This document shows positions 14,123 through 61,468 of a stretch of 64,000 bases of DNA, one piece after another. Positions within the stretch are counted from its first letter, which is position 1. Each line of letters opens with the position of its first letter. The translations under genes and the position numbers were made by a program. Source of the stretch: an uncultured archaeon (GTDB taxonomy: Archaea; Asgardarchaeota; Lokiarchaeia; Sigyniarchaeales; SOKP01); assembly GCA_964486045.1 (NCBI GenBank), contig CAZALK010000003.1, positions 64,001 to 128,000 of the forward strand. The letters run 5' to 3'. The notes beneath the pieces are model-generated. The model did not search any database. It was not told the DNA's origin and was given only the letters and a program-made list of their open reading frames with translations.

Positions 14123-17100
14123 TTGATTCGACAAAAAAAAGAGATTAAAAGAATAGTCATTGTCGTAATTTTTATTACATTTATTTTAATAACCAATTTC
14201 CACTTTCTTAATCATTCCAATCTAATAGATGAAAATAATGACGAAAATCAAGGATTAGAGATTTTTCCTAAAACTTCTGATCTTAATATAACAGATTTTA
14301 TTCTTGGTAGTGGAGACGACCAAGATGTTAGAATATATGTAAATAACGAATCTAGCAATTTAAACGATAACGAAGATTTTTTCGATATTCCCTCAATTCC
14401 TACAGACGATATGTTTCTCACTTATGGTGATTTTAATTTCACATTTCAAAATAATTACACAACAGATTACATTCTTGAGGATGACACTGCTTTAGATGCA
14501 GCAGATTTCATATCCTTTGATTTTGATGAGGATCCATCCAATTCAGATTATATTCCGGGAGTTGGAACATCAGTTATTGGAGGATCGTTCAGCGATTTAG
14601 TTGACAGTTCAAATTCAACCAACCTGTGGTTACAATCAAATGCCACAAATAATATATTAAATTTTACAATAAAAGCAAATTATACAGATGAAACTTATAC
14701 AAACATAGGGGTGATCAATGGTAATGTAGAGTTCGATAGAACTGATATATTAGCTCTAATTCTCTCATTACTTTTTGACCTTACTCTTGATGCTAATTTG
14801 ACAATAAGAATAAAGGATTATACACAACCAACTTGGGTTAATTTGACTGATCCAATTCTGGTTAATAGTAGTATAGGTATACAGGAGATTAACCGTAAGA
14901 TTATTAATGAAAATTTGAATTTCATTGATTTATCAGATGTTTGTTATTTACAATTCTTTTTTGAGAGAAGTGACCTTGCTTCATTTGATGGCCGATTCTA
15001 CAACTTAGAATTAGAATCAACCTACGCATTTGATCTACCTATAACTAATAATAGCTATGTCGCTTTAGAATTTGACTTAAAGGGGGAAAATTCGACTGTA
15101 AATGGATTTAATGTTTGGATAAGGACCTTAAATTTGACTCAGGCGGCAATAACACAACTAAATATTACACTGTATAGAGCAGATGGTACTTTAGTTCGAT
15201 CAGGTGGGACAGGTGGGAGTTTACGAGGTACTCAGTTAAACCCAGATTACAATGAACCGATAGATCCAATATTATTATTAAATTATACTAAAGACAACAT
15301 TTCCTATTTTGAGTTTAATACTTCTAACACTCAAAATCTAAACCTTTCAAATTACTTTGTTGTGATAAAATCAAATAACTCAAATGAAGTGTACAGTCTA
15401 GTAACTTTGCCCTATATTGATTATACCGCAGATGGGATAACTGAACACCAATTAATAACTACAATCAATGATGGAATTAGTTGGTCATTAGCTAAAAAAC
15501 AAGTAGATACTACCATTTCAACATACCCTTCAGGTCAATTAGATGCTAGTCCTTTTAGGTTGAACGTCACTAGAGGATATATGCCATCAGATTTTATATA
15601 CAATGCTACCAATACACTAAAAATTCAAGATATTCCAATAGAAAATTTAGAAATTAGCTCCTATCCATATAATGAAAGTTCTTATTTAACTTGGGGATTA
15701 GGGAGATGGACTAATACCTTTATTGAACCAATTGAAGATACTCTCGCAAATGAATTTGAAGTTTACTTACAATGGAATAAAACTGTTATTGAGGGTTTTA
15801 AATTCAATGTTACTTATTCTATAAAAGCTTATTGGATTGTAGGCGCTCAAGCATTTTATAATGCAACTTATAATGAAAATCCTGAATGGAATTTAGAGTT
15901 CGATTTTGATAAAAATAATTCAAAATTCAATAATTGGGATTTTTTTGAATTTTGGTTTGTTTATCCTAACTTCATGAATGCTCATAATTTGACAAATCCA
16001 AATGGAGAAGAGTTTCTTTGGTTATTAGAACAAGAATCAATTTTAACAGAGAATCCAACTATGTTTAAACTTGTAATTAATGAATCTTATTCCAGTCTTA
16101 ATGGTTCATACACACTTAATTTAACGAGTTACAATTTCATTCAACAGATTCACAGTTATATTAACTATAATGGAATTTTATCAGAAACAGTTGGTTTCAT
16201 GTATGGAGATAACATATCGATTAGCCTTGATATCCAAGACCAGAATCTTGACGCCCCTATAAGTGGTGATGCAAACGTTACCCTTTTTTACCCAAATGGA
16301 ACTAAATATCCTGGAGCGATATTGTTTGATTCAACAGGAGATGTTGATGGATCAGTATTATCTTACGATTTCAATAACAACACGATTCTAGATTTGACAG
16401 ATGCGGTTACAGTTTTTGGGGAATATAAATTAGGAATCCTTTGGTTAAATGGTTCCGCCTTAGGATGCAAAAAGATAACTTTATATATTGATTCATACGA
16501 TCTCGATTTATATAATTTAACCTATTCTTCGAACCTAGGGACTAATGTTCTTATTGGAGAAATAAATAATAAGGTATTTCAAAATTACACAATGTTAATT
16601 GCATCAATTAACGATACAACAGGTATCCCAAATCCAAATTTTTATGCTATAAATAATTCAAATATCAATCAAGAATATTCTTATAATTTTGAAGGATGGG
16701 ATCTACCCATTTTGCTTGAATCATTTCTGCAAAGTGAAAATATCTTAAACCCGAATGAAATTATCAACTTTAAGACAACAATTCAAAATGCACACGAAAC
16801 GTTCAATTTAACTATTAAAATCCTTACACAAATAGTATCTTATCTCAATGAAGATTGGATTATAGCTGAAAATTCTTCAAACTCAATTACATTAAATTCC
16901 TCCGGTTCCCCAAATGATAGTTATGAATTTGACTTTAATCTTACAATTCCAAATTTAAATATAGCTACACAAACTTGGATGGGTGTAAATGCACCTATCA
17001 GATTAGGGGGTGCAAAAACAATAGTTACTTTATATATCGAGGATAACGTTGCAGGGATATATAAAAGTCCTGAATTCTCACTTTTAAGTAATAAAACAAG

Positions 17101-18256
17101 TGATAATTTTGAGGGTTATATTCTTGGTTTGACAATTTCTGAAAAGATCACAAGTCGAAGCATTTTATATGAATTTGACAGAGACGAATGTATTTACTTT
17201 CCAGATAATTCATCATTTTTAGTTAATATCATTGATGAAAATTATGTTAGCAGTTATAGACAATTCAATGACGAATTTTCTATAAAACTTAATAGTATAT
17301 TTACAAATATCACTATTGAACCAAACTCTCCCATCAAAGGTCAATCAATAAATTTTAGTTCAACTTTAACTACTGAATTTGGAGTAGTGTTATCAAATAA
17401 AAATGTCACTTGTGAGTATTTTGACTCGAGTTCATGGGTAGAAATTGCTACAGGTATAACTGATTCCAACGGTCACGTTACCTTTAATATTGACACTATG
17501 GTTATCGATTTTGAGGATGATTTGCAATTACAATTATCTTGGGATGGGGATATCATAAATGGAGTTTCAAAGAATGCTTTCATAAATATTTTGCATGAAA
17601 CAAACGGCATTTCAATTTTAGTTAGCCAGATTGATGTTTTAATATACAGAAACAGACTAACAACAATAAAATACATTCTAAGTAATATAGGAGACTCTGA
17701 CTTAAGACTTTTTAACATTACAGTGGATATTGAAAATAATTTACAATATACAACCGTAGAAATAAATTATGTTGAATTAAATTGGTTCTCTTCTGGAGAT
17801 AACACAGATATAATAATTGAAATTTCAATATCAGAAGTCAGCCAACTTCAAGTTAATTTTACAATTACAGCCCAAAATGTTATTACAGGAGAAATATTCA
17901 CTTTCTTCAAGGAATCTTCTTATGCCGTTTTTGATCCTCCAATAACAGATTATGTAATTGAGTTTTTCATGTTTACTATAATTGTCATTTTCGGTATTAT
18001 TTGGCTTGCAGCAATAATCTATACTCGTCGAGTAAGGAAAAGAATTGAAGAACCGGTTGAAGTTCCGTTGAGAAAACCGAGAAAGGGCAAATATATAATG
18101 GTATCCGATCTTAAAAAACCAACTCCAGAGAAAAAGGTTCCCAAGAAAAAAGTAGAACAAAAAGAAGTCAAACCAAAAAAGACGACAGACTTAGATTCCT
18201 TGTTAGAAGAAAGAGGCTTAGCTGAAAAACAAAAAAAGAAAAATTCTAAAAAGTAA
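14123..18256 (+). CDS. Large cell-surface glycoprotein, single C-terminal TM, Lys-rich cytoplasmic tail
   Basis: Signal peptide, dozens of N-x-S/T sequons, beta-rich composition, TM near residue 1280-1300. Confidence 0.8.
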   Translation: MIRQKKEIKRIVIVVIFITFILITNFHFLNHSNLIDENNDENQGLEIFPKTSDLNITDFILGSGDDQDVRIYVNNESSNLNDNEDFFDIPSIPTDDMFLTYGDFNFTFQNNYTTDYILEDDTALDAADFISFDFDEDPSNSDYIPGVGTSVIGGSFSDLVDSSNSTNLWLQSNATNNILNFTIKANYTDETYTNIGVINGNVEFDRTDILALILSLLFDLTLDANLTIRIKDYTQPTWVNLTDPILVNSSIGIQEINRKIINENLNFIDLSDVCYLQFFFERSDLASFDGRFYNLELESTYAFDLPITNNSYVALEFDLKGENSTVNGFNVWIRTLNLTQAAITQLNITLYRADGTLVRSGGTGGSLRGTQLNPDYNEPIDPILLLNYTKDNISYFEFNTSNTQNLNLSNYFVVIKSNNSNEVYSLVTLPYIDYTADGITEHQLITTINDGISWSLAKKQVDTTISTYPSGQLDASPFRLNVTRGYMPSDFIYNATNTLKIQDIPIENLEISSYPYNESSYLTWGLGRWTNTFIEPIEDTLANEFEVYLQWNKTVIEGFKFNVTYSIKAYWIVGAQAFYNATYNENPEWNLEFDFDKNNSKFNNWDFFEFWFVYPNFMNAHNLTNPNGEEFLWLLEQESILTENPTMFKLVINESYSSLNGSYTLNLTSYNFIQQIHSYINYNGILSETVGFMYGDNISISLDIQDQNLDAPISGDANVTLFYPNGTKYPGAILFDSTGDVDGSVLSYDFNNNTILDLTDAVTVFGEYKLGILWLNGSALGCKKITLYIDSYDLDLYNLTYSSNLGTNVLIGEINNKVFQNYTMLIASINDTTGIPNPNFYAINNSNINQEYSYNFEGWDLPILLESFLQSENILNPNEIINFKTTIQNAHETFNLTIKILTQIVSYLNEDWIIAENSSNSITLNSSGSPNDSYEFDFNLTIPNLNIATQTWMGVNAPIRLGGAKTIVTLYIEDNVAGIYKSPEFSLLSNKTSDNFEGYILGLTISEKITSRSILYEFDRDECIYFPDNSSFLVNIIDENYVSSYRQFNDEFSIKLNSIFTNITIEPNSPIKGQSINFSSTLTTEFGVVLSNKNVTCEYFDSSSWVEIATGITDSNGHVTFNIDTMVIDFEDDLQLQLSWDGDIINGVSKNAFINILHETNGISILVSQIDVLIYRNRLTTIKYILSNIGDSDLRLFNITVDIENNLQYTTVEINYVELNWFSSGDNTDIIIEISISEVSQLQVNFTITAQNVITGEIFTFFKESSYAVFDPPITDYVIEFFMFTIIVIFGIIWLAAIIYTRRVRKRIEEPVEVPLRKPRKGKYIMVSDLKKPTPEKKVPKKKVEQKEVKPKKTTDLDSLLEERGLAEKQKKKNSKK

Positions 18257-41425: not shown

Positions 41426-42505
41426 TTATTGTACGAAAGTTGCTGCATTTTTCAATGCTTCTTCTGCGTCCTTTATAACTGTTGTAATGATGTCCGATAC
41501 ACTCTCGATTTTATTTATTACTCCGATACTTTGACCCAATAAAACTCCTCCGTTTTCCATATCGCCTTGATAAGCAGCAAAAGCTGCTCTTGCATCTTTT
41601 CTTAATTCTTCGGCAAGGTCTTCCTTTGAAATTGCGGTACGGTGGTCTCCTAATGCATTTTCCTCAGCTATTTTTTCTTCTTTACTTTTAACTAAGCCTT
41701 TTTCAAGAGCATATTTATTCTTCCAATACCTAATCGTTCCTAAGCTTCCCGTCCTTATAATAGTATCTTGAGCTTTAGCTGGTGGTACAACACCTTTATA
41801 ATTTTCATGAAATTCACTGTCTTTAGATGCTATAAATCTTGAACCCATCGCAACTCCCCCAGCACCTAAAGCTAATGCTGCAGCCATACCTGCTCCGGTG
41901 CCATATCCTCCGCACGCGATTTTCGGGACATCTGGATGTTTTTGCTGTACTTGCTGTAATAGAACTAACCCACCAACTTTTTCATAAGATTGGTGACCCC
42001 CACCTTCAAAACCGGTTACAACAAGGCCGTCGCAACCTGCAGCCACGCATTTGTTCGCCAACCAGAGCGCAGGGGCAACATGGAAGTGTTTTATATTCGA
42101 ATTTTCCCTTAGTTTCTGAAAATCCTTGTTTAGAGGCATTCTTGATGCAGAACCCGCACTTGTAAGCGCATATAAACATTGTTCTCGCAATTTTGGGTTT
42201 CCCATAATATGTTTTGAGGTTTCAGAAATTAAATTATCGCAATTAACAGTATTTCTTGAAGTTCTAATATTAAACCCAAAAATCCCACTGGTATGCTCGA
42301 CTACGTAATCAAGATTTTTTTTCATCGCTACTATCGCATCTGGTTCCCTGCCATCCATTGATTGGTTTGCATGAGAGATCATTCCAAGTCCACCCTCTTC
42401 TGAGACCGCAATAGCTAGTTCAGTGGTTCTAAAAGGGCCCATTGCGGCGTTTGCAATTGGATGCTTAATTCCAAACATTTCAGTAATATTTGTTTTTAAT
42501 GTTAT
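41426..42505 (-). CDS. Nitronate monooxygenase/FabK-like flavoprotein (probable ATA start at 42505)
   Basis: PI..A.M, G.EGGGH, IACGG, MGSRF; upstream LKTNITE matches paralog N-termini. Confidence 0.9.
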   Translation of the reverse strand: MTLKTNITEMFGIKHPIANAAMGPFRTTELAIAVSEEGGLGMISHANQSMDGREPDAIVAMKKNLDYVVEHTSGIFGFNIRTSRNTVNCDNLISETSKHIMGNPKLREQCLYALTSAGSASRMPLNKDFQKLRENSNIKHFHVAPALWLANKCVAAGCDGLVVTGFEGGGHQSYEKVGGLVLLQQVQQKHPDVPKIACGGYGTGAGMAAALALGAGGVAMGSRFIASKDSEFHENYKGVVPPAKAQDTIIRTGSLGTIRYWKNKYALEKGLVKSKEEKIAEENALGDHRTAISKEDLAEELRKDARAAFAAYQGDMENGGVLLGQSIGVINKIESVSDIITTVIKDAEEALKNAATFVQ

Positions 42506-43979: not shown

Positions 43980-44555
43980 TTGAACTTAGTATTTTCAATA
44001 ATATTTTTTACCGATATTGATAATAATTCTATTGATATACTTTTGGTGGTACACAATAATATTAAGAAAAAACTGGTTTTTCGTATCAATCGCAATAAGA
44101 AATCGAAAAAAAAAAATGTAACCGATTTAGATCGGGGTGAAATAGTAAAAAAATTAAACGGTCGAACTCTTATGGTTTATTTTGTACTTCTAAATAAAAA
44201 ATTCATTGGTGTGCGCGAGTTACAGCGGCATTTAGAACTTTCTAGCCCAAGTGTTGCAAAGTACCATCTTGAGAAATTAGAAAATTTAAATCTAGTTGAG
44301 AATAGAAATGGCGTATATCATCTTAGAAGAAAGGCGGATTTGCCATTATTAACTTCATGGGTTTTGATAGGAAAACAGCTTATCCCAAGGGTTATTTTTG
44401 CGGCCTTGTTTTTTACTTTTCTTTTTATTGGTTATTTATTCTTTGTTTATACCTATTGGAATAAAGATAGCTTATTTGTTATATTGTTTGGAATAGCAAT
44501 CATGATTTTTGTATGGATGGACGTGATCTTACAATTCAAACATAAACCGATATAG
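43980..44555 (+). CDS. Winged-HTH regulator with two C-terminal TM helices (true start probably downstream)
   Basis: GVRELQRHL.LSSPSVA.YHL.KL motif, then 2 TM. Confidence 0.85.
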   Translation: MNLVFSIIFFTDIDNNSIDILLVVHNNIKKKLVFRINRNKKSKKKNVTDLDRGEIVKKLNGRTLMVYFVLLNKKFIGVRELQRHLELSSPSVAKYHLEKLENLNLVENRNGVYHLRRKADLPLLTSWVLIGKQLIPRVIFAALFFTFLFIGYLFFVYTYWNKDSLFVILFGIAIMIFVWMDVILQFKHKPI

Positions 44556-44684
44556 TGTAAAACATAACCTTCATTAATATCTCAGCGTAATTTCTGTAAA
44601 ATCATCCACTGTTCTAAACTGTAGTATAATAAATTCTGGTGATATAATGTAATATGTAAATGAAATTGAATTAAGAGAAAAAAA

Positions 44685-47600
44685 ATGAATAGAAGCAGAA
44701 AAGGCAGTATCTTCTTATTATTGATATGTATTCAATTTTTTTTGATGGGTTTTAGCGTTATGGGAACCAGTTCCTATAATGGAAATGAGCAGGAAATTCC
44801 TCAAGGACAAAAAATTAAAAGTGACACCATGTCACATTCATCTCCTTACTATTTTCCTACTAATAAATCATCCCCATTGATGACAGACGTATCAGAGGGG
44901 TTAGATTCTGATAAAAATCCCAAACTTGCTAATTATTATTACAATAATGATTATGTCTTAACACTCAATTTAGATAAGTCAGTTCTTACAATTGGTGAAA
45001 CTCTTACATTAAATTTAGGTTTAACTTGTAATCTATCTGCGTCACCAGGAAAAGTAATATCAGTAGAAATCTATGAAGGATTTTACCGCAATTATTATTA
45101 CTACTATCCTAATTATTATGAGTCTGGAACTCCAATATATACAGAAGATCTTACAACTAATGCAGACGGTCAAGCTTCAATGACGTTCTCATCCACTACA
45201 TCTGAAGGGATGTATACGGTTTACGCCTATACAGAGGATAGTCGAATTTATAAAGATTTTACAATTGGTGAAGCTGGTATATTCTACAAAGGACCAAGAT
45301 TTTATAAACCCAACCAACATTACAGCGCTGCTGTTCATGTTGTTAATCTCACTGACTTTTCAGGTATGCCCTTAGCGTTTTTTAATTATTCAATTTCTTA
45401 TTATCTATATTCTTCTTCGAGTTGGAATATTTTAGCAGCAGACCAAGTACAGACAGATGATACGGGGTATGCGGTTTTAAATACTGACATCCCTTTGGAT
45501 GCGGATAATTATAATGTCCTTAGATTAACCATATCCACTCTTGATGGTAAAGCAGAATATCAAGCCTTTTTATATGAGAGTTGGGATTATTACTATTATT
45601 GTATGTGGGGAGGTCAGCAAAAAACTATTCAGGAAAAATTTCAGTATGTAGTAACAGCAGATAAAACCATTTACAATCCTGGTGATATTGTTTTACTAAG
45701 AGCATTAGTAATGCAATACTCATTTATGAACGAAACAAAAGTTGCGTTGCAATATACCCCAATTTCCTTAATAATCTATAATCCGGATGAATTTGCTGTA
45801 TTTTGGACAGATATTGCTACTGATGAGTATGGAATATTGTCTTTTAATTTTCCGTTAGATGAAGATTGTGAGCTTGGAAATTATGGATTCGAATTTAGTT
45901 ATTCAGGTGAAACATATAGGTACAATATAAAGGTTGATTATTACGTTAAACCAGTTTTCAGAGTGGAAATAGATACAAATGAGAAGGATTTTTATTCTGC
46001 TAATGAAAAATTATTTGAAGGTTTTGTTTTTGCATCTTATTACTTTGGTCAACCGGTAGTAGGGGCATCTGTAGTACTCACAATTCAAAACCATTGGGGG
46101 GAGATTAAAAAAGTAATAGAGGGATACACGAATGGTGAAGGCAGATTTTATTTTTCAACAAATTTACAACTTATCCCAGATCTAGATTATTCTTTTAACG
46201 TACAAGCTGAAGTAACAGATATTTACGGAAGGAGTGCATCCAGTGAAAAAACCTACACCCGTATAAAAGAATTATATGCTTATGGGTACTTAACTGATTG
46301 GGCACCTCATCCTGATGATACTTTAGAATACTATTTCTACGCATTTCAGTACGTTATGTCTGATTGGTATTGGATGTATAATCCTTTAGCAAATATATCA
46401 GTCAAAATTGAAATCTTAGGAATCGCAAACTATCCCTTCCCTTTAGTGTTCAATTTTAGACACTTGATTGCAACATATTCTAAAACAACTAACATATTTG
46501 GATCAGGGAAACTGGAATTTAACTTGCCATTAGCTATTATTAAGATTTACAATCTTTTTGAAATTAGGCTAACAATTAGTTTAGAGGATGGACGAACTTC
46601 AACCTCCTCATATTATTATAGATATAAGAAATACAGTTTGGATATTAATATTATAAATTCTACTTTAAATCCAGGTAATATCCTTGAATTTGAAGTCACT
46701 TTTAAAGATGTTCTGACTGGTTATTCTAGCACAGGTGAAGGTAAAATCTATATTTATGACGCTAATCATCAATTGATAGGTCAAGTTAGTGATTTTATCT
46801 CTGGGAGTAAAACTTATAATTTTTTAATACCAGATTCGTCTCCTGAAGGGAGGTATTATATTTATTCTTATGTTTATTCCCGCCCTAATCAATATTATGG
46901 TGGATTTAATTATCATTCCGCACATGAATCCTTTATTGTGGGAAGTCTTCAATCTATATCAATTGTTTCCAATTTTAGTAATTCTGGAACTTATTATGAT
47001 AAAATTATTGTTCAGATTGGTGACGTTATAGAGATTAATGGTACATCAAACGTAACAGCCAATATTCAGCATTACATGGAAATCTATAAGCGCGGATTAC
47101 TTTTTTCGTTTCCGTTAGAAGTTATTAGCAATAATTTCTCGCATATTTTGTCAGTTCTTCCAGAATACGCTCCTGATTTTACGATAATTATATATACAAT
47201 CTCTGATTCAGGAAAGCTTTATGAAACTATCCTAACGGTTCATGTTGAGTATGCTTATAGCTTAAATCTGTCAACAGATAAAGAAATTTATGAACCTGGA
47301 GATCTAGTAACTCTTACGATAACACCATCGGAAAATACTACTTCAGTTGTTGCACTTTCATTTATTGACAGTGCTGTACTTGATGTAGAACCCGAAGATG
47401 ACTCTGAATTAGCATATTTTACAAAACGTCCCTATTCAGCATATATTAGCTCAGGAAGCTCATGGGGATTTGGATTCAGTGCTGAAAGTTATTGGTGGTT
47501 TGGTTATGGAAGGCCTTCAGGAGGAATTCGTTATTTGGAAGTCAACGATCAAGTATTCTTTTTAGATAGCTACTATGCAGGATCATTAGAATCACGGACT

Positions 47601-50600
47601 GACTTCAAATCTGATAGTTTTTCGTTCGATGAATTAGTCTCTAATTTTGAAACAGAGATTAGAAAGAATATATCGGAGTCAGCAAATTGGATGCCTAATT
47701 TAATAATATCAAAACCCACAGAAATTACCTTTAAACTACCCGATAATATCGGAGAATGGACTATTAGAGCTGTGTGTAATAATATTTTTAAGGACTCAAA
47801 TGCCATTATTCTATGGGGAGATGTGGTAACTAAACAAATTAAAACCTTTTTGCCATTTTTTGTTGAATTCGAGATACCTGAACCAGTTTTTCAAGATGAT
47901 ATCCTAAGCGTAAAAGGTTATATCTACAATTATATTGGAACCGATGTTTATGCTACAGTTGCGATTAGTGCCCCTGAGCTTATTATATTAAATAAAGACG
48001 TTCAAGAATTATATATCCCTGATGGATTTGTTTCTGAAATAGAGTTTTCTGTATATTGTATAAAACCTTACTCCCAGAATATCACTCTTTTAGTTGTTAC
48101 AGAATCTGGGGGAGTAAAGTATTCAGATGCAAAGCAGTTGACTACTTATATCAAACCCAATGGTATAGAAATCATTAATAGAACAATTGGTTTTTTAAAT
48201 GCAACTGATGGGTCACTCCTCCTAAATTATACAATTGATCCATTAGCAATATATCATAGAGAGACATTAGCTTTATATACAGACCTGATGGACATTTCTA
48301 TTGATAGTTGGCAATCTCTTATCGGGTACCCCTATGGATGTATAGAGCAGACAATATCTAAGACAATGCCAACTGCTTTAATATTTAATTATTTAAATCA
48401 AACTGGGCAACTCACTAATAATTTAGAGCAAGAAATGACTCTAATGATATTAGAAGGGCTCAGTCGAATTTATAACTTTCAGCATAATGATGGTGGTTGG
48501 GGCTGGTGGCGAGATGATGCGTCTAAAATTATTATGACCTCTATTGTCATATCCGCATTAAACCAAATTGAAAAAGTTGGATTTCAAATTAATCAATATA
48601 TCTTGAATAAAGGAATTGATTATTTAATTGCCCATCAACAACCGAATGGTGCCTGGGATTTTCAGGAATATTCTTCAAATACCTTGGAAGCTACGGCTTT
48701 TATTCTAAAAGCACTCATAAGTTCCAATAACATAACCACCGAAATGAACACAGCTATTAATAACGCAATTGGAAAATATACAAATTTATGGAATGCTGGA
48801 GATATGCAGAGTTCTTATGGAGCATCTCTTTTTTACATCGCAACTAAAGCTAATATTTATGAAAATATCACTCTAAATAATGTTTTAATCCAATTTATTA
48901 AAGATAATTTTGTAGCTGAGGACAATACAATATTTTGGGAAAGCGATATAAATAATATATGGTATTGGAGAAAATTAGGGAATAAAGTAGAAATTACATC
49001 ATATGCCACATGGGCTCTTGCAATGGATGATTATATTAGCAATTACGCTCTTATCCAAAAAGCTGTAAGGTTTTTGTTAGATCAACGTAATCGCTGGGGA
49101 TGGGGATCAACAGCTGATACTTCAGCTGCGATTGCAGCATTAACCGCAATTAATGGGGTTATGATTGGAGGTGGATTTATTGATTTCAACGGAACTATTT
49201 CGGTAGTAGTTAATAATTACACACCACCTCAACATTTTTTAAATTTTACAGAATCTAATAATTATCCTGACGAAATTCTGTTATACCTTGATAATCTTGA
49301 AACTGAAATAATTAATACAATAAATATCACACTTGAGGGTTTTGGTAATATTTGCTATATTTTTGAAAGCACACAAATATTACGATCAGATCCAAAAATA
49401 GAGATTCCGGAGATTATTGAAGTTTCTCAGAATGAACAATTCTATTTTTATTTAGAATTCTCTGAAATTGATGAAAGAATGCCACTCGTAGATACTACAA
49501 TATCATTACTTAATATCCCTCAAAATTTCTACGATTCAGAAGCAAATTATACGATTTTTAACCCACTCATTCTTAATGGGAGTAAAGTGTATTTTCCTTT
49601 AATAGCACCAGACATAGAAGGTGATTATTTCTTAGAAGGAGTTTCAATATTAGGTTATATTCAATACAATGATACTTCAACTAATTCTTCACGATTACAA
49701 CCTTTTCAGAGAACAGTAGGACCTACAATTATACGTGTTGGAGCAAAATCGCAATCCTTATTTCCAATGATCAATTCAATTAATGCTTCAGGATCAGGAC
49801 AACAGATTTTATCTCTAATAAAAGAAATTTCTAAACAGAAATATCTAATTTCAGGAGAATTAATAAATATAACGATAAAAATAACTAATAATGGAGATGT
49901 GCGCCAATTTTATGTTGTAGATGATGAACAGCCTACAGGCACAGTTTTCATACCTGATTCTGTTGAAATTTCAGGCAATTATTCTGACTCAGAAGTTACT
50001 CATGAAATATATTCATCTGGAATTCATTTCTTTTTCCCTATTTTAACCAAAGGAGCTACTGAAATTACATATCAAATTCAGGTAAATAATATTAAAAATG
50101 CATATTCTGGTCAATGCAACCTTTGGGGCATGTATGATGATACGTATATCTCTGCAAAATCTATCGTATTGGAAAATATTCCAAGAAAATATTTTACAAG
50201 CAATTTGGTTTATCAAGATTTATTACTACCATCAATTTTAAATGCTAGTGTACTGCAAAGTTTTAAAACTCCGAATATTGAGCTAAGAGTTAATGTCCAA
50301 GCAATGGATAATAACATTATACACAAAATTCGGGTCATCTTTTCACAAGATTCTGGTTGGAGGGCTCAAACTCTTTATTCAATGAGAGATCAAGATGATT
50401 TTTCAATTAACATTACTGATCTTAAAAACATTAATTCTATTGTAACACTGTTTATAGAAGTCTCTGATATTTATGGTAACACAGCCACTTTGATTTTACT
50501 ACCAATAAGGATAACCATTTATGAGCTCATTCCATATCTAATAGTTGGTGCAATTGTGGGCTTTTCCCTCGGAATCGCAAGTATATCTTCAGTTCTTTAT

Positions 50601-50699
50601 AAAAAATTTGAAAAAAAGAAGCAAAGAAAAAAAAATAACCTACTTGAGAAACCAGAAGAAAAATTTTCATTTGAATCTTCTAAAAATGAGAATTTTTGA
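44685..50699 (+). CDS. Alpha-2-macroglobulin family thioester protein, membrane-anchored
   Basis: Signal peptide; DK.IYNPG MG2; Y.KP.F.V; LPDNIGEW.I.A; YPYGCIEQT; Q..DGGWGWW; W.ST.DT; C-terminal TM. Confidence 0.95.
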   Translation: MNRSRKGSIFLLLICIQFFLMGFSVMGTSSYNGNEQEIPQGQKIKSDTMSHSSPYYFPTNKSSPLMTDVSEGLDSDKNPKLANYYYNNDYVLTLNLDKSVLTIGETLTLNLGLTCNLSASPGKVISVEIYEGFYRNYYYYYPNYYESGTPIYTEDLTTNADGQASMTFSSTTSEGMYTVYAYTEDSRIYKDFTIGEAGIFYKGPRFYKPNQHYSAAVHVVNLTDFSGMPLAFFNYSISYYLYSSSSWNILAADQVQTDDTGYAVLNTDIPLDADNYNVLRLTISTLDGKAEYQAFLYESWDYYYYCMWGGQQKTIQEKFQYVVTADKTIYNPGDIVLLRALVMQYSFMNETKVALQYTPISLIIYNPDEFAVFWTDIATDEYGILSFNFPLDEDCELGNYGFEFSYSGETYRYNIKVDYYVKPVFRVEIDTNEKDFYSANEKLFEGFVFASYYFGQPVVGASVVLTIQNHWGEIKKVIEGYTNGEGRFYFSTNLQLIPDLDYSFNVQAEVTDIYGRSASSEKTYTRIKELYAYGYLTDWAPHPDDTLEYYFYAFQYVMSDWYWMYNPLANISVKIEILGIANYPFPLVFNFRHLIATYSKTTNIFGSGKLEFNLPLAIIKIYNLFEIRLTISLEDGRTSTSSYYYRYKKYSLDINIINSTLNPGNILEFEVTFKDVLTGYSSTGEGKIYIYDANHQLIGQVSDFISGSKTYNFLIPDSSPEGRYYIYSYVYSRPNQYYGGFNYHSAHESFIVGSLQSISIVSNFSNSGTYYDKIIVQIGDVIEINGTSNVTANIQHYMEIYKRGLLFSFPLEVISNNFSHILSVLPEYAPDFTIIIYTISDSGKLYETILTVHVEYAYSLNLSTDKEIYEPGDLVTLTITPSENTTSVVALSFIDSAVLDVEPEDDSELAYFTKRPYSAYISSGSSWGFGFSAESYWWFGYGRPSGGIRYLEVNDQVFFLDSYYAGSLESRTDFKSDSFSFDELVSNFETEIRKNISESANWMPNLIISKPTEITFKLPDNIGEWTIRAVCNNIFKDSNAIILWGDVVTKQIKTFLPFFVEFEIPEPVFQDDILSVKGYIYNYIGTDVYATVAISAPELIILNKDVQELYIPDGFVSEIEFSVYCIKPYSQNITLLVVTESGGVKYSDAKQLTTYIKPNGIEIINRTIGFLNATDGSLLLNYTIDPLAIYHRETLALYTDLMDISIDSWQSLIGYPYGCIEQTISKTMPTALIFNYLNQTGQLTNNLEQEMTLMILEGLSRIYNFQHNDGGWGWWRDDASKIIMTSIVISALNQIEKVGFQINQYILNKGIDYLIAHQQPNGAWDFQEYSSNTLEATAFILKALISSNNITTEMNTAINNAIGKYTNLWNAGDMQSSYGASLFYIATKANIYENITLNNVLIQFIKDNFVAEDNTIFWESDINNIWYWRKLGNKVEITSYATWALAMDDYISNYALIQKAVRFLLDQRNRWGWGSTADTSAAIAALTAINGVMIGGGFIDFNGTISVVVNNYTPPQHFLNFTESNNYPDEILLYLDNLETEIINTINITLEGFGNICYIFESTQILRSDPKIEIPEIIEVSQNEQFYFYLEFSEIDERMPLVDTTISLLNIPQNFYDSEANYTIFNPLILNGSKVYFPLIAPDIEGDYFLEGVSILGYIQYNDTSTNSSRLQPFQRTVGPTIIRVGAKSQSLFPMINSINASGSGQQILSLIKEISKQKYLISGELINITIKITNNGDVRQFYVVDDEQPTGTVFIPDSVEISGNYSDSEVTHEIYSSGIHFFFPILTKGATEITYQIQVNNIKNAYSGQCNLWGMYDDTYISAKSIVLENIPRKYFTSNLVYQDLLLPSILNASVLQSFKTPNIELRVNVQAMDNNIIHKIRVIFSQDSGWRAQTLYSMRDQDDFSINITDLKNINSIVTLFIEVSDIYGNTATLILLPIRITIYELIPYLIVGAIVGFSLGIASISSVLYKKFEKKKQRKKNNLLEKPEEKFSFESSKNENF

Positions 50700-50901
50700 A
50701 ATCCATTCACAGTTCTTCATTTTGAACTAATCCTAAATCTTATAAGGACATGAGCATCATAGTTATTTTTGGTGGTATTAAGACCAGAATCTAAATATAG
50801 TCTAAGAGTCCATTAAGAGTTCCTATTCTTAAACTATATATTAAATCCTTGGAATATTAATATTATAAAAAAACAAAAAAAACAAAAAAGTGAAAAAAAA
50901 A

Positions 50902-51123
50902 ATGACCCAAGCTTATGAAGAAGTAATGGAAATGAAAAGTCTTGAAGTTGAAGAGATTGAACAACCTGAAGTTCAAGAATCAATAGAAAGTGAAGTTGAT
51001 GAACTCCTTGGAGATTTAAATCCAAGATATTTTGAGGAAGGTTTTTCAATGAATGAAGCAAAAGACAGAATCGAATCAGCTAAAGCTTATTCGGATTTTA
51101 GCTTCAATACATATGGATTTTAA
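50902..51123 (+). CDS. Small acidic protein (73 aa)
   Basis: Glu-rich ORF with A-rich leader and downstream T-tract; ends DRIESAKAYSDFSFNTYGF. Confidence 0.7.
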   Translation: MTQAYEEVMEMKSLEVEEIEQPEVQESIESEVDELLGDLNPRYFEEGFSMNEAKDRIESAKAYSDFSFNTYGF

Positions 51124-51416: not shown

Positions 51417-52460
51417 GTGATTTATAAATTGATTGAAACAAATATAACTAAAATGTTTGGGATAAAACACCCAATCTTCAGTGCTCCAATGGGACCTTTT
51501 TACACTCGTGACTTGGCTTTAGCGGTATGTGAAGCAGGTGGTTTGGGTGTGTTGTCTAATGTTAACATAGTAGGGACAGATCCTGTAAAAGAACACATAG
51601 CTAGCATAGAATACATGATTGAACACACTGATAAACCATTCGGGCTTAATTTTCTTACTTCTCGGAATAATCGAGGAGTCAAAGAAATGGTAACGGATGT
51701 ACCTAAAATGGTTATGAACAATCCAAAGATGAGAGAACAGTGTGTGTACTGGTTAACTTCAGCTGGTTCTTCAAAAATTTTACCTTCTTCTAAAAATTGG
51801 CAAGAATTAAAGGAAAAATCGGAAGCAAAACACTTTCATGTAGCCCCCGCTTTATGGTTAGCACAAAAATGTGTGGATGCCCAAGTAGATGGAATTGTAG
51901 CCACGGGTACTGAAGGAGGAGGCCATCAATCTTATGAAAAAGTCTCTACCATGGTTTTATTACAACAACTTAATGAAGCTTTTCCAGATTTACCCAAGAT
52001 AGCATGCGGAGGTTTTGCTACTGGAGAAGGTTTAGCTGCCGCCTTATCACTTGGAGCAGGAGCTATAGCTATGGGATCGCGATTTATTGCTTCAAAACAA
52101 TCGGAATTCCATGAAGCCTACAAAGGGTTAATCCCTCAAGGTAAACCACAAGATACAGGGCTTTTCACTGGATCATTCGGTCCTATTCGCCTATTCAAAA
52201 ACAAGTATGCTTTAAGCCACCCCGCACCTCAAACTAAAGAAGATATGATAGCCTATGAAAAATCGTTAACACCTGAGGTATTAGCACGTGATGCAGGCGC
52301 TTATGATAGAGTTTATAATGGGGATGTTGAAAATGGAGCAGTTCTGCTAGGCCAATCAATCGGTATTATTAATAGTATTGACGATGTGAGAGACATTATT
52401 GATCGGGTAGTGAAAGGGGCAGTTGCTTCAATAAAACGTAACCAATCTAGGCTAAATTAG
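51417..52460 (+). CDS. Nitronate monooxygenase/FabK-like flavoprotein
   Basis: PIFSAPM, GTEGGGHQ, IACGG, MGSRF; close paralog of 41426..42505. Confidence 0.92.
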   Translation: MIYKLIETNITKMFGIKHPIFSAPMGPFYTRDLALAVCEAGGLGVLSNVNIVGTDPVKEHIASIEYMIEHTDKPFGLNFLTSRNNRGVKEMVTDVPKMVMNNPKMREQCVYWLTSAGSSKILPSSKNWQELKEKSEAKHFHVAPALWLAQKCVDAQVDGIVATGTEGGGHQSYEKVSTMVLLQQLNEAFPDLPKIACGGFATGEGLAAALSLGAGAIAMGSRFIASKQSEFHEAYKGLIPQGKPQDTGLFTGSFGPIRLFKNKYALSHPAPQTKEDMIAYEKSLTPEVLARDAGAYDRVYNGDVENGAVLLGQSIGIINSIDDVRDIIDRVVKGAVASIKRNQSRLN

Positions 52461-53020: not shown

Positions 53021-53992
53021 TTATAAAATTGTTTTTAACCTATTGATAACATCTTCAGCTTCTTTCATTATACGATCTAATAACTCTTTAGCGGTAGGAA
53101 TATCCTTAACTAAACCTACACCTTGACCGCATGAGACAATACCTACGTCCAAATCGCCTTCTTTGTACATTTTTCTTGCGTTTTCACCCGAAGCTACTTT
53201 TATTATTTCTTGGAGTGGTGCTTTTTGAGATTCTAATTCAAGGATTTTTTCAGCAGCTTTATTCTTCCAGAATCTATGAGAGTTCCGAATACTTCTCATA
53301 GCGATTGTCGTGTCCGTTTCCGTTGCTTGAACAAAAGCTTGTTTTAGGTTATCATGCAAAGGACATTCCTTAGTCGCCATCATTCGAGTTCCCATTATCA
53401 CTCCTTCAGCACCAAGTGCAAGAACTGCAGCAATACCCCGACCATCGGTAATTCCCCCCCCAGCGATTACTGGAACATCTATAGCATCTACAACACTAGG
53501 TGTCATCACAAGAGTACCAATGTCTAGAGTTCCTGTTGCTCCACCATTTTCATATCCAACTACTGTAATAATATCAGCACCCAAAGAAGCACCTGTTTTA
53601 GCATATCTGACACCTGCGCACTTATGAATCCAAGTAGCGCCACCGTCCTTAAATTTAGGGACCAAATCTGCGGGCGCTTTATGACCACTTGTTTCGATTA
53701 TTTTCACACCTTCATCAAGAGTCGCGCCAACATATAGTTCCAATTTCTCTTGTGGCATCATGGCAGGAAAAAGGTTTATGTTTACAGCAAAAGGTTTATC
53801 AGTTAGTGATTGTGTTTTTTTAATTGCTTCCCGTAACTCATCAGGTGTTTGGTAATTTGCACTTGCCAATACTGCGCAAGCACCAGCATTACTTACCGCA
53901 GCAACAAATTCAGGATTGGAGATATTAGCCATCGTCCCAGAAATTATAGGATATTTACAACCTAACATTTCAGTTACTTTCGTTTTAATCAT
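53021..53992 (-). CDS. Nitronate monooxygenase/FabK-like flavoprotein
   Basis: YPII.G.M, PVIAGGGI.DGRG.AA.LALGAEGV.MGTR. Confidence 0.92.
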   Translation of the reverse strand: MIKTKVTEMLGCKYPIISGTMANISNPEFVAAVSNAGACAVLASANYQTPDELREAIKKTQSLTDKPFAVNINLFPAMMPQEKLELYVGATLDEGVKIIETSGHKAPADLVPKFKDGGATWIHKCAGVRYAKTGASLGADIITVVGYENGGATGTLDIGTLVMTPSVVDAIDVPVIAGGGITDGRGIAAVLALGAEGVIMGTRMMATKECPLHDNLKQAFVQATETDTTIAMRSIRNSHRFWKNKAAEKILELESQKAPLQEIIKVASGENARKMYKEGDLDVGIVSCGQGVGLVKDIPTAKELLDRIMKEAEDVINRLKTIL

Positions 53993-57898: not shown

Positions 57899-60800
57899 TT
57901 AAGATACAATTATCAAACTTTCTTCAGAAGTATAGATAGTTATACTATCAACAATTAAAAGCCATTTAAATCTGATGATGATATCAGTTGTGTAACTATT
58001 AACAAATCCGCTTAAGATTATTCCTTCACCAGAATATAGAGTAGTGTTAATTAAGGTAAAATTAATTCCTGAGTAAAGACCATAGTTGAAAGTGGCATTT
58101 TCCAGAGGGTAAAGATTTGGGGAAACTGAAATGTTAAAATTTCCTCCTCCTTCTCTGTAAAGCGATAGATTTACTTGTACACTGAGTCCCGGAGCTAAAA
58201 GTGTTTCATTAAAATTCTCGAGTTCTATTCTAAAGCTTGCAAGATCGTCAGGTAAAATCATCGAATTTTCCAAATTAAAATTGTAAATAATAGGTACTAT
58301 GTTGACAACTACAGTTATGTTGTTTGAAGTTGAATTTCCAAAGATGCTTGATGCATTTATGTAAAATTCGTAGTTACCAGATCCTAACTGTGAGATTGAA
58401 TAAGTAGTTTGCGAATTAGACAAATCTGGAATGAATAGGCTATTATTTCTATAGATTGAATATGTTTCTGCTTTATAAGATTCAGTCCAACTCAATACAA
58501 AATTCCCGTCAATGTCCGGATTATCAGCATTAGTTGTTAATATAAATGGCCTAGAAACGCCTATGATTTCTGTGTTTGAAGTTCTATTTCCAATATCATT
58601 TGAAGCTTCTATGTAATAAGCGTAGTCTCCTGTTCCCAACTCTGAGATTAAATAAGTAGTTTGTGAGCTAGGCAAATCTTGAATTAATAGGCTATTATTT
58701 CTATAGATTGAATATGTATCTGCTCTCAGAGATGTAGTCCAATTCAATACGAAGTTCCCGTCAATGTCCGGGTTATCTGCATCAGTTGTCAATATAAACG
58801 TCCCAGGTCCAATGTTACCTACATTATTATACGCTTCAATAGCCTCTGATCCATATCCTACATTCCTAGTGAAAGCTTCTACAAATCCTGCTAATTTTAA
58901 CTGTTGTAAACCTCCAGCTGTACTATATGTTGGGATATAATAGTAAACTGAACCTCCAAGAGGATATAAAAGAGTATTACCGTTTCTGGCTCCAGAAATT
59001 AAAGAAATTTCTTGTGTTGCTTCAGTTTCATATGTATCCCTTGCTGTTTTAGGGCCAATCAAGTTTTCAGTTGAGTTCCTAGTATGATAAAAAATAGCTT
59101 CCCCAAAATTCGTACCATGCCTTATAACATACATTCCGGCTAGAGTCCTTGCTTCTGCTCCTCTATACTCCACTAAATCTAATCCCACATACTCTATCCC
59201 GTCTCCAAGGTTCGTCTCGATATAGAAGAGATCTCCATTTTCTGGTCTTTCATGAAAATCGTCTCCTCTCTTCCATGTCGTTAAATCTTGGACGTGATAC
59301 TTGTAATTTGCTTCTAACTGTAATTCGAACAAGCTTTCAGGATATCTTAACTGGCTTTTTAACCAATCTGGAGCAACTTTCCAATCGTAAACTTTCGTGT
59401 AATATTCCCAAAGAGGATATGTCGGATCTGAGCTTGCATCAATTCCTTCTAAACTGGGATTTTCATAAAATTCTATATTGCCCGTTTTCACATCAATTAA
59501 ACTAATTCCTAAAAATCGTAATATGGGAGAATTTGCATATGATCCAATATTTATTGTTGTGAAAATTGAAACTGCATAATACACCTTTTGTTCTTCAGTG
59601 TCAAAAACTAAATAGGGATCATAATCTATACTTAATTGAGGTAAAAGTATGTTTCTTACACGGTTTTTCACATTTCTATTAATTAAAAATTCTTTTCCAC
59701 CTGCTTCAAAGACATAACCCCATAATCCTAAATTTACTGTATACCAGAATGCATCTAAACCTGCTAGTGTCCCGTCTGGATCACCCTCATAAACAAACTT
59801 ATTGTTAGGAATTCCGCCACTCCATTGAGTCCCGAGGAGGATAGAATTATCATAAGCGCCTAAACCTCCACTAGATTCTTGTTGTTCTATAAATTTCGGA
59901 CTCTCAGATTCACCGAAAAATATTGGATAATCTTCTGGGATATTGAAAGTTGTGCTTACGTTGACTAGTTGTCCGGTAAATGTATCTAATGCTAAGAATC
60001 CCTCAACATGATCATATAACTCAGTATTTGTTTTTACTGGATCTCCCGAAAATTGGGACATTCTAATAGTTTTCGGAGCTACCCAATATTCTGATCCATT
60101 TATATAAACTATATCTGAATCTGCTAAACCTTCAAATGTCGTACCTATTTTTGCTGCTAAACTTTGCACTGCAAAATCTTGATCAAATTGTCGAATACGT
60201 GAGATCATTTGGGTATCATTTTCAGGATTAGATGATAGTGCAAAATTTTCAATGGAACGTTCTTCAAACATACTTAATCCTGCAGTTGCTCGTGTCCACT
60301 CTATTTCCCTTTGGATTTTTTTTGTCCATTGATATTCAGAATAAACTGATTCATTACTTATTGTTATCGCTGGACCTAAGCTAAAAAACGCTGGTAATAA
60401 TATAACGATAATAATTGCAGTTGCTAGTATCCCCATCTTTATACTTCTGGGATTTATTATCATCCCTTTAGTAGGATTTCGTGACAATGTTATGCGTCCG
60501 TAAATATATACTGAAATACCTAATACTGTGAGAATAAAAAATGCTAAAATTAGAGACCACATTTGCATTACTTGAATCCCATCTAAAGCAAAGGAAGGTA
60601 ATGTAAAGAAAATCAAACCAAAAATTAAGCCACTCATTATCAATGCGTTTGTAGCTATATTAAAATCATTTCTTTTCAAATAATAGTTACTTGCGATGTT
60701 GAGTATCAATCTGAAAATAAAAACTCCGAAAATAAAGTAGATCAAAGGCAAATACAATCTCGTATAGACGAAAATAAATTCAATATTCATGTTATTGGTG

Positions 60801-61468
60801 TTTAAAAGCACATCAAGGGCATCGGTAAATATAGTAAGTGGTGATAATGATATTTCTCCATTTTCAAATAAATACAAAACCCATGAGAACTGACCATCAA
60901 AATCAAGTACCATACCTATAAAATAAAACATTATAAATCCGGCTGTCCACCAGAAAATTAAAGATTTTATCCGAGAAGGTTTACCAAATCTTAACCGAGT
61001 ACCGATTATCGTTAATAGATTACGATTGGGTGGTAAGCTCATTATTATGCAGCCAATAATTGCCCCAGTTAAAGCTGTCTTATTAAGAAGGAAATTAATT
61101 GACCAGAAATTTAGAAAGTAAAAATCATAATAATTCAACCCACCAGCCTTATTCGCGTAGAGTTGCGCATTTAAATAAATTGGTCCGAACCATGCAGGCC
61201 AGAACCAGAAGAACGATAAAATTACGATGATAATCACTATAGCAGGAATAATATATTTGAGATATTTTTTCACACGTGGTTTCTTTTTAAACCAATTAGA
61301 TTCTAGAAACTTCCTTCTATGAGGTTTATATGGAATTTCATCATTATCGAGCTCTCCTCGTTCTAAGAGCTTAACTTTCTGTTGTATTTCATATTTTCTA
61401 TTTGCTTCTTGGCAATCTTCGCAATAATGATTAAATTTCTCATGTTTTTCACAGGATTTTTTTACCAT
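57899..61468 (-). CDS. UPF0182-family membrane protein with duplicated FN3-like C-terminal domains
   Basis: Multi-TM N-half; TR.TAGL, Y.H..G, DPYLV, LRYPE.LF..Q and KYH motifs; two 84-aa repeats. Confidence 0.85.
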   Translation of the reverse strand: MVKKSCEKHEKFNHYCEDCQEANRKYEIQQKVKLLERGELDNDEIPYKPHRRKFLESNWFKKKPRVKKYLKYIIPAIVIIIVILSFFWFWPAWFGPIYLNAQLYANKAGGLNYYDFYFLNFWSINFLLNKTALTGAIIGCIIMSLPPNRNLLTIIGTRLRFGKPSRIKSLIFWWTAGFIMFYFIGMVLDFDGQFSWVLYLFENGEISLSPLTIFTDALDVLLNTNNMNIEFIFVYTRLYLPLIYFIFGVFIFRLILNIASNYYLKRNDFNIATNALIMSGLIFGLIFFTLPSFALDGIQVMQMWSLILAFFILTVLGISVYIYGRITLSRNPTKGMIINPRSIKMGILATAIIIVILLPAFFSLGPAITISNESVYSEYQWTKKIQREIEWTRATAGLSMFEERSIENFALSSNPENDTQMISRIRQFDQDFAVQSLAAKIGTTFEGLADSDIVYINGSEYWVAPKTIRMSQFSGDPVKTNTELYDHVEGFLALDTFTGQLVNVSTTFNIPEDYPIFFGESESPKFIEQQESSGGLGAYDNSILLGTQWSGGIPNNKFVYEGDPDGTLAGLDAFWYTVNLGLWGYVFEAGGKEFLINRNVKNRVRNILLPQLSIDYDPYLVFDTEEQKVYYAVSIFTTINIGSYANSPILRFLGISLIDVKTGNIEFYENPSLEGIDASSDPTYPLWEYYTKVYDWKVAPDWLKSQLRYPESLFELQLEANYKYHVQDLTTWKRGDDFHERPENGDLFYIETNLGDGIEYVGLDLVEYRGAEARTLAGMYVIRHGTNFGEAIFYHTRNSTENLIGPKTARDTYETEATQEISLISGARNGNTLLYPLGGSVYYYIPTYSTAGGLQQLKLAGFVEAFTRNVGYGSEAIEAYNNVGNIGPGTFILTTDADNPDIDGNFVLNWTTSLRADTYSIYRNNSLLIQDLPSSQTTYLISELGTGDYAYYIEASNDIGNRTSNTEIIGVSRPFILTTNADNPDIDGNFVLSWTESYKAETYSIYRNNSLFIPDLSNSQTTYSISQLGSGNYEFYINASSIFGNSTSNNITVVVNIVPIIYNFNLENSMILPDDLASFRIELENFNETLLAPGLSVQVNLSLYREGGGNFNISVSPNLYPLENATFNYGLYSGINFTLINTTLYSGEGIILSGFVNSYTTDIIIRFKWLLIVDSITIYTSEESLIIVS
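58300..58798 (-). repeat. Intragenic tandem duplication, 252-bp period
   Basis: FILTT(D/N)ADNPDIDGNFVL.WT.S..A.TYSIYRNNSL starting at 58798 and 58546. Confidence 0.9.

Follow-up and report, generated by a model that had tools for sequence, protein, structure and literature searches.

A membrane-anchored alpha-2-macroglobulin with an intact thioester motif, co-inherited with a predicted membrane-tethered winged-helix protein in Lokiarchaeia

A two-gene locus in a Lokiarchaeial genome

We analysed a stretch of 64,000 nucleotides (hereafter the window) from an uncultured archaeon of the Sigyniarchaeales (Asgardarchaeota; Lokiarchaeia; assembly GCA_964486045.1, contig CAZALK010000003.1, positions 64,001 to 128,000), with particular attention to an alpha-2-macroglobulin (A2M) gene and the gene that precedes it. 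The window has a G+C content of about 31% and is part of contig 3 of a 45-contig, 5.18-Mb genome. The A2M/thioester protein gene, recognised from the list of open reading frames (ORFs) and by Pfam, occupies positions 44685..50699 and encodes 2004 amino acids (aa); like all the features of the two genes described below, it lies on the + strand. The A2M that it specifies is complete, is anchored in the membrane and has its thioester motif intact, and a genome-wide search found no other TED than the one in this protein. The gene upstream, in the same orientation (43980..44555, from the ORF list and the ortholog alignment), codes for a membrane-tethered winged-helix protein, hereafter the regulator. 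Read from the TTG codon at 43980 the regulator would have 191 aa, but the GTG codon at 44046 is the more likely start because of the alignment of its orthologs, which gives a protein of 169 aa.

Domain organisation of the A2M

All the Pfam domains expected of the family, MG2 (aa 322-416), MG3 (420-493), A2M_BRD (775-900), A2M (1005-1092) and TED (1199-1487), exceed their cut-offs and follow one another in the canonical order. MG2 and MG3 are encoded at 45648..46163 and are preceded in the protein by about 320 aa of additional beta-rich sequence. The bait-region domain A2M_BRD (47007..47384, Pfam E 1.3e-11) is followed by the bait segment proper, and the TED (48279..49145, Pfam E 2.8e-31) is predicted to form an alpha-alpha barrel, judging from the helices of the AlphaFold2 model described below. 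The thioester motif, GCIEQ, is located at 48336..48350 (aa 1218-1222), with Cys1219 and Gln1222 as the putative thioester-forming residues. CxEQ is invariant in the 47 of 47 full-length Asgard homologs that were aligned.

The conservation of the motif is relevant to the idea that the protein might be an inert structural component of the envelope, with an A2M fold but without a reactive thioester. Its size, its membrane anchor and its richness in sequons would suit such a role: there are 34 NxS/T sequons in the ectodomain, compared with 21.9 +/- 4.3 in shuffled sequences. Nevertheless, both CxEQ and the longer stretch YPYGCxEQT are unchanged across more than 100 sequences of only 28-45% identity, and in the window's own genus most genomes lack the gene, which would not be expected of a core envelope component. 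We therefore regard an inert envelope protein as barely credible.

The bait segment (47421..47639), delimited by model confidence, conservation and alignment, starts with a conserved aromatic part, SSWGxGF..SYWW, and continues with a hypervariable part rich in insertions and deletions. The minimum of conservation in the A2M core is at aa 931-990, an indel-rich portion where identity drops to 0.32-0.43, versus 0.75-0.78 in its flanks, which are the most conserved blocks of the core.

At its N terminus the protein carries a signal sequence (44685..44765), with a basic n-region and a hydrophobic core at aa 5-30, as determined from hydropathy and the alignment. The signal sequence ends in ...FSVMG/TSS, and the lipobox pattern L-[AS]-[GA]-C is not present in it. 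Towards the C terminus, a bMG10/DUF11-like domain (49842..50174) gives weak matches to PF17973 and TIGR01451, the Pfam match to bMG10 covering aa 1720-1801. This domain ends with LWGMYDDTY (aa 1813-1821), which corresponds to the MYxPE motif where bacterial A2Ms end. It is followed by an extra beta domain or stalk (50214..50504), confined to the Asgard clade, by a transmembrane (TM) helix predicted from hydropathy (50526..50600, aa 1948-1972) with the basic stretch KKFEKKKQRKK directly after it, and by a short cytoplasmic tail. A signal sequence and a C-terminal TM helix were found in every member of the clade that was checked, both in the Lokiarchaeial branch and in the second, Hodarchaeales-type branch presented below. 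Non-Asgard homologs align to aa ~970-1590 only. Receptor-binding features of the eukaryotic type were searched for as well. There is no match to A2M_recep (PF07677) in this protein at E values up to 0.01, and the same holds for the precomputed Pfam annotations of over 100 Asgard members, many showing bMG10 in its place. Likewise, Pfam detected no anaphylatoxin, C345C or receptor-binding domain.

As a separate observation on the bMG10/DUF11-like domain, giant proteins of about 6000 aa (P0096, P0101 and P0197) contain 20-35 tandem copies of a DUF11/bMG10-like unit equivalent to aa ~1711-1806 of the A2M.

Structure model and the nature of the thioester target

For aa 770-1940, an alignment of 46 sequences served to build an AlphaFold2 model, with a predicted local distance difference test (pLDDT) score of 80.3. 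The only long disordered stretch in it, with pLDDT below 50, is aa 913-977. When compared using VIA with the native forms of TEP1, A2M, A2ML1, C3 and C5, the model gave Z scores of 32-34 and root-mean-square deviations (rmsd) of 4.2-4.6 Å over 650-710 residues, and with protease- or methylamine-activated forms it gave an rmsd of 14-15 Å. As the native forms fit so much better than the activated ones, the model has the native arrangement, in which the thioester is shielded. The predicted TED alone matches C3d, C4d and the TED of C5 with Z scores of 25-28. The VIA alignments stop at about residue 1074 of the model, i.e., aa 1843. Since they stop there, and since LWGMYDDTY matches the end of bacterial A2Ms, the final beta domain (aa 1844-1940) is an addition, as are the TM helix and the tail.

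The original prediction, made from the sequence alone, had described a full A2M domain order, a GCIEQ motif at 48336-48350, a low-structure bait at about 47440-47640 (aa 919-986), a signal peptide and a C-terminal TM anchor. Each of these features is borne out, the position of GCIEQ to the nucleotide, and the bait by both low model confidence and low conservation. The structure model that it had proposed as a check on the bait and the thioester pocket was thus obtained, with its disordered bait and native-state A2M fold.

The structural comparisons also bring up a function closer to those of complement or of insect thioester proteins (TEPs), in which the thioester would bind another cell, be it a syntrophic partner or a competitor, or a virus, and tie the target covalently to the archaeal membrane as a tag or adhesin. 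The Lokiarchaeia known so far are closely associated with partner cells, the protein is anchored in the membrane and would be projected from it by the extra stalk domain, and the model is equally close to TEP1, C3, C5 and A2M. However, the His/Asn loop located about 110 residues after the thioester (VIHSGLQGG in CD109), whose His/Asn/Asp determines the preferred nucleophile and which provides the catalytic His for the hydroxyl reactivity of complement-type proteins, is deleted in Asgard, other archaeal and ECAM-type sequences, and it is kept in bacterial A2Ms with a receptor-binding domain (RBD-type). Because this loop is absent, an amine is the expected target of the thioester. The lack of anaphylatoxin, C345C and receptor-binding domains also argues against a complement-like role, as does the hypervariable bait, a feature typical of protease traps with a broad spectrum. 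We thus consider it quite unlikely that the protein is a covalent tag or adhesin.

A predicted winged-helix protein with a membrane hairpin

The upstream gene was said in the original prediction to encode a co-oriented winged helix-turn-helix (wHTH) protein with two TM helices, and modelling agrees with that description. In the AlphaFold2 model of the regulator (pLDDT 80.7), three helices with a wing precede two long helices. The wHTH domain (44163..44324) comprises helices at residues 12-23, 28-35 and 40-52 and a wing at residues 56-65, with an invariant SSPS..YHL.KL signature in the recognition helix. The long helices (core residues 88-109 and 115-137) coincide with hydropathy maxima and are predicted to form a membrane hairpin with a very short outer loop (44391..44540). 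The best Foldseek matches of the model are wHTH regulators, namely PadR, Phr, CadC, BigR, HlyU and PagR; the superpositions on CadC, BigR, HlyU, PagR and PadR have rmsd values of 2-3 Å over 55-77 residues, with probabilities of 0.9-1.0. Sequence profiles gave fainter signals: HTH_metalloreg of NCBIfam scored 19 bits against a cut-off of 55, and a search of PDB profiles with the regulator alignment returned weak matches only, to ArsR-type chains (E 0.3-0.8). NCBIfam provided no useful name for either the A2M or the upstream protein. Taking the model and the structural matches into account, the regulator is most likely a protein of wHTH fold, predicted to bind DNA.

The regulator shares 59-72% identity with its orthologs in Promethearchaeum syntrophicum MK-D1, Lokiarchaeum ossiferum and others, above the 45-65% of the A2M itself. 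Small wHTH-2TM proteins such as this one make up a large family, with members in 213 of the 400 Asgard genomes that made up our phylum-wide survey, and clusters of look-alikes occur in Bathyarchaeota and other archaeal phyla. The neighbourhoods of eleven unlinked paralogs had no common theme, with the exception of one family. In that Asgard family, the genes for wHTH-2TM paralogs directly follow a gene for a protein of 631-635 aa, for which five TM helices are predicted and Pfam gives no match (L101:7471-9378, - strand; L103:7512-9407, - strand; L105:5093-6988, + strand). The five-TM protein and its paralog constitute a second recurrent pairing of the regulator family.

Membrane-bound one-component regulators, with a cytoplasmic HTH and membrane helices, control nearby surface-related genes in archaea and bacteria, as exemplified by ArnR of Sulfolobus and by ToxR/CadC and BcrR. 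We liken the regulator to them by architecture only: it has about 145-170 aa, no sensor domain and a minimal outer loop.

Distribution of the A2M and linkage to the regulator

A search of 5.8 billion proteins yielded about 55 full-length A2M orthologs of some 2000 aa, with 39-84% identity. All those with a name come from Asgard Lokiarchaeia/Promethearchaeota, including P. syntrophicum MK-D1 (50%) and L. ossiferum (45%). A second group, at 28-31% identity, consists of proteins labelled Hodarchaeales, Heimdallarchaeota or 'Asgard group'. Among the 400 surveyed genomes, the Loki-type A2M is encoded by 9 of 53 within the window's genus and by 9 of 14 within the family of MK-D1, and the Hodarchaeales-type A2M by 20 of the 22 belonging to one family. 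The A2M gene is thus old within the Asgard archaea, yet dispensable.

Conservation of the gene pair had been proposed as a test of the original prediction, and the linkage proved to be real. An ortholog of the regulator gene, with 63-86% identity, is present upstream of the A2M gene and co-oriented with it in all 16 Lokiarchaeial genomes whose contigs include the upstream DNA. The two genes are directly adjacent in 14 of the 16; in the other two, they are about 1 kb apart with an AIM24 gene between them. At E < 1e-50, regulator orthologs are restricted to A2M-bearing genomes, and in the window's genus (about 53 genomes searched) every genome without the A2M is also without the regulator ortholog. 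In the Hodarchaeales-type clade, the best regulator homolog has 40-50% identity and is unlinked, and other genes are located upstream of the A2M. At 160 other A2M loci, 80 of them bacterial and 80 metagenomic, we found no neighbouring regulator homolog. Of two metagenome scans directed at the Thermoplasmata-type clade, one gave no match and the other only generic A2Ms of 23-28% identity, without an adjoining regulator homolog.

Two individual loci may be mentioned here. In one Lokiarchaeial genus, the intervening AIM24-family gene (L006:5067-5780, - strand) has the opposite orientation. In another genome, the A2M ortholog (G178:C425:11944-14410) matches only residues 1-402, 460-582 and 1769-2003 of the query, and this copy appears from its sequence to be internally deleted and decaying. 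It is still located behind an intact regulator gene and the 15-nucleotide (nt) element described in the next section.

A conserved promoter-proximal element and a conserved cytoplasmic tail

In an alignment of the spacer between the regulator and A2M genes from four genomes, the 15-nt sequence TGTTCTAAWCTKTAG is the sole conserved block. It is present here as TGTTCTAAACTGTAG (44610..44624), directly 5' of the TATA-like sequence TATAATAA and about 60 nt before the ATG codon of the A2M gene, and we consider it a candidate operator. An exact match occurs only once in this genome, and the element is found in the same spacer in 13 of the 16 Lokiarchaeial genomes. A conserved element so close to the promoter fits control of the A2M gene by the regulator. 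At the L006 locus, two degenerate, inverted copies of the core TGTTCTAA are found upstream of the A2M gene. A direct repeat in the spacer, GATATANTGTAA, was considered too and dropped, as it is not conserved at the other loci. Scans for sigma-70 promoters and terminators were uninformative, the host being an archaeon.

The cytoplasmic tail of the A2M (50601..50696, 32 aa) is composed of the basic juxtamembrane stretch and of KFSFESS (50661-50681). The latter is a version of the motif [VI]SF[LI][DE]xS[DE]E, with its acidic SF(L/I)D, that characterises the Lokiarchaeial clade. The strict pattern is present in 39 of 48 Loki-clade sequences (binned by score), with near variants in several others, and in none of 53 Hod-clade sequences. 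The median length of the tail is 37 aa in Lokiarchaeial A2Ms versus 5 aa in those of the Hodarchaeales type. The regulator, the DNA element and the tail motif are all confined to the Lokiarchaeial branch.

A proposed surface protease trap under the control of a membrane regulator

We propose that the locus is probably a two-gene surface-defence unit of Lokiarchaeia, consisting of a tethered protease trap and its dedicated membrane regulator. The signal sequence would direct export of the A2M, and the single C-terminal helix would anchor it in the cytoplasmic membrane, with the 32-aa tail inside the cell. Outside, the A2M would adopt the native-state fold, with the Cys1219-Gln1222 thioester buried. 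By analogy with homologs, cleavage of the disordered, fast-evolving bait (aa ~913-985) by a foreign protease would trigger the usual A2M rearrangement, and the exposed thioester would then react with an amine of the protease, leaving the enzyme covalently bound to the cell surface. As for the winged-helix protein, fixed in the membrane by its hairpin, its most likely role is to control the A2M promoter by way of TGTTCTAAWCTKTAG beside the TATA box. Because the regulator, the DNA element and the acidic tail motif share the same confinement to one branch, it is possible that the regulator reads the state or the amount of the A2M through the TM helix or the tail of the latter.

If this last possibility were the main function, the A2M would chiefly be an extracellular sensor: the signal of a cleaved bait or a discharged thioester would be relayed through the TM helix and the acidic tail to the winged-helix protein, which would switch genes. 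A single sensor and a single regulator would then constitute a system for sensing proteases. The strict joint gain and loss of the two genes and the conservation of the tail motif only where the regulator is linked would be expected of such a system. The outer loop of the regulator is too short for it to sense by itself, and its conservation higher than that of the A2M points in the same direction. On the other hand, the sole conserved DNA element is at the promoter of the A2M gene, and the position there of the only exact match to TGTTCTAAWCTKTAG in the genome suggests autoregulation of a single gene rather than a wider response. In addition, the Hod-clade A2Ms manage without the regulator or the tail. 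A chiefly sensory role is therefore unlikely. There is also the related proposal of a transmembrane signalling device, built from the A2M and its partner and acting at TGTTCTAAWCTKTAG, in which the thioester protein would be a receptor for extracellular proteolytic attack; we hold it to be rather unlikely.

Several observations weigh against the protease trap with a dedicated regulator, or at least against parts of this interpretation. The Foldseek E values of the regulator model are only 0.01-0.1, and its Pfam matches are below threshold, with 17.9 bits for HTH_5 (cut-off 22) and 17.7 bits for TrmB (cut-off 25.6), both with E ~3e-3. The 15-nt element was not found in one Lokiarchaeial genome (G136) and exists only as degenerate copies in two others (G131 and G132); given that it adjoins the TATA-like box, it could belong to the core promoter instead of being an operator. 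The co-occurrence of the tail motif and the regulator amounts to one contrast between two clades. The patchy presence of the A2M gene in its own genus (9/53) is the reason why we call it dispensable. Lastly, it is by analogy with homologs that we infer thioester formation, bait cleavage and protease trapping for the Asgard clade, and DNA binding by the regulator and its coupling to the tail are inferred too.

Thioester proteins have a central part both in the innate immunity of animals and in the defence of the bacterial envelope. A distinct archaeal form of A2M is present in both cultured Asgard archaea, MK-D1 and L. ossiferum, which makes the proposal directly testable. Its strict co-inheritance with a regulator, a promoter element and a tail motif leads to the hypothesis of a surface protease trap wired to gene control.

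Relationship to bacterial and eukaryotic thioester proteins

The original prediction had further suggested that the locus is relevant to the origin of eukaryotic TEPs. Trees were computed on the A2M core (aa 990-1600), with FastTree for 125 rows and with IQ-TREE (LG+C20) for 47 rows. Near-identical members of clusters were left out, as were ECAM and P0075 from the IQ-TREE run on account of their long branches, and E. coli yfaS, a pseudogene in K-12. The eukaryotic sampling consisted of two sequences, both CD109. In both trees, the Loki- and Hodarchaeales-type A2Ms form one clade with a support of 100, and the named neighbours of this clade are archaeal: Thermoplasmata, Freyarchaeota and a DPANN archaeon. 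C-terminal TM anchors are found in the Asgard and the Thermoplasmata-type clades and are absent from the shorter archaeal proteins and from the bacterial ones.

That the Asgard A2Ms would be the vertical forerunners of the eukaryotic thioester proteins has some points in its favour. The family is present in both Hodarchaeales-type and Lokiarchaeial genomes, and FastTree places the archaeal group and the group of CD109 and bacterial RBD-type proteins on the same side of a 99% split. Furthermore, an approximately unbiased (AU) test, performed with only two eukaryotic sequences, did not reject a clade of Asgard A2Ms and CD109 (p 0.097, difference in log-likelihood 21.1). However, in the two trees both CD109 sequences group with bacterial proteins that carry A2M_recep (Shimodaira-Hasegawa-like approximate likelihood ratio test, SH-aLRT, 99), from Spirochaetia, Planctomycetota, Myxococcota, Sorangium and others. 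The Asgard proteins have neither A2M_recep nor the His/Asn loop, and they possess a bMG10-type domain near their end. To our knowledge, TEPs are essentially confined to animals, so that with vertical descent most eukaryotes must have lost them. Such a descent is very unlikely. The Asgard A2Ms share GCxEQTMS and DGGWGWW with prokaryotic types and look like prokaryotic-type proteins in their sequences, which do not support them as the ancestors of animal complement-type proteins. Regarding the origin of eukaryotic immunity, the result is thus mostly negative, the sole type of TEP sampled grouping with bacterial proteins, and this part of the original prediction was not supported, with the proviso that the AU test leaves the Asgard-CD109 clade unrejected.

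The parallel drawn in the original prediction with the C-terminal anchoring of CD109 turns out to be an analogy only, as CD109 has a glycosylphosphatidylinositol (GPI) signal in place of a TM helix with a tail. Like the Asgard A2M, human CD109 (PDB 8s3o, 9fx2 and 9fx3) is a monomeric, surface-tethered thioester protein of the A2M family attached at its C-terminal end, and in VIA it matches the model with Z 28.6 and an rmsd of 4.2 Å over 702 residues. It differs in its GPI anchor, its His-bearing loop and its C terminus of the eukaryotic receptor-binding type, and it branches with the bacterial RBD-type A2Ms. Similarities also exist with the bacterial type-1 A2Ms ECAM (YfhM) of E. coli and SaA2M of Salmonella (PDB 5a42 and 4u48), which are monomeric, membrane-tethered and thioester-bearing, have a bait and a bMG10-type C-terminal domain and likewise are devoid of the catalytic His loop (Foldseek TMq 0.47-0.48). 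Nevertheless, ECAM and SaA2M are held in the periplasm by an N-terminal lipid anchor and are encoded in an operon with PBP1C, whereas the Asgard protein has no lipobox, a C-terminal TM helix and a regulator as its partner; it is also about 350 aa longer, with the extra stalk domain and the tail.

Archaeal A2M homologs with a TED and CxEQ were described previously, with 27 proteins in 24 genomes, mainly of Halobacteria and Methanomicrobia (Makarova et al. 2021, PMC8416519). The phyletic table of that work lists two A2Ms in Heimdallarchaeota LC_3 and none in Lokiarchaeum GC14_75, Loki CR_4, Thor or Odin. The Asgard A2M resembles those archaeal proteins in its signal peptide, its MG/Ig domains, its TED with CxEQ and the lack of a PBP1C partner, and some of the haloarchaeal loci reported there likewise have an associated transcriptional regulator. 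In contrast, the C-terminally anchored Asgard clade of about 2000 aa, the wHTH-2TM partner, the DNA element and the tail motif are not part of that description (PMC8416519). Within the library of papers that we searched, none was found to pair 'macroglobulin' with Lokiarchaeota or to treat Asgard A2Ms. Archaeal A2Ms with CxEQ are thus already known, and what is added here is the C-terminal tail motif, the DNA element and the pairing with a regulator in Asgard archaea.

Gene neighbourhood and other features of the window

In E. coli, yfhM adjoins pbpC, and the original prediction had pointed out that no PBP1C partner was seen at the present locus. This holds: no PBP1C gene is found among the flanking genes, which code instead for nitronate monooxygenase-like (NMO) proteins, thioesterases, CMD and an enoyl-CoA hydratase. 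Three NMO-like paralogs (41426-42478, - strand; 51417-52460, + strand; 53021-53992, - strand) and the thioesterases surround the regulator-A2M pair. In a genome of the same genus (L005), the NMO, 4HBT_2 and NMO genes recur downstream of its A2M gene, and because of these shared genes we place the pair within a metabolic cluster that is syntenic in the genus.

Rfam and tRNA scans of the window gave no matches. In the 700-nt gap 3' of the A2M gene, there is an ORF for a very acidic protein of 77 aa (50890-51123, + strand), which is not conserved downstream of the A2M orthologs of MK-D1, L. ossiferum and L005. The window also contains other large ORFs, of 1189-1377 aa, at positions 8541-12512, 14123-18256 and 57899-61468.

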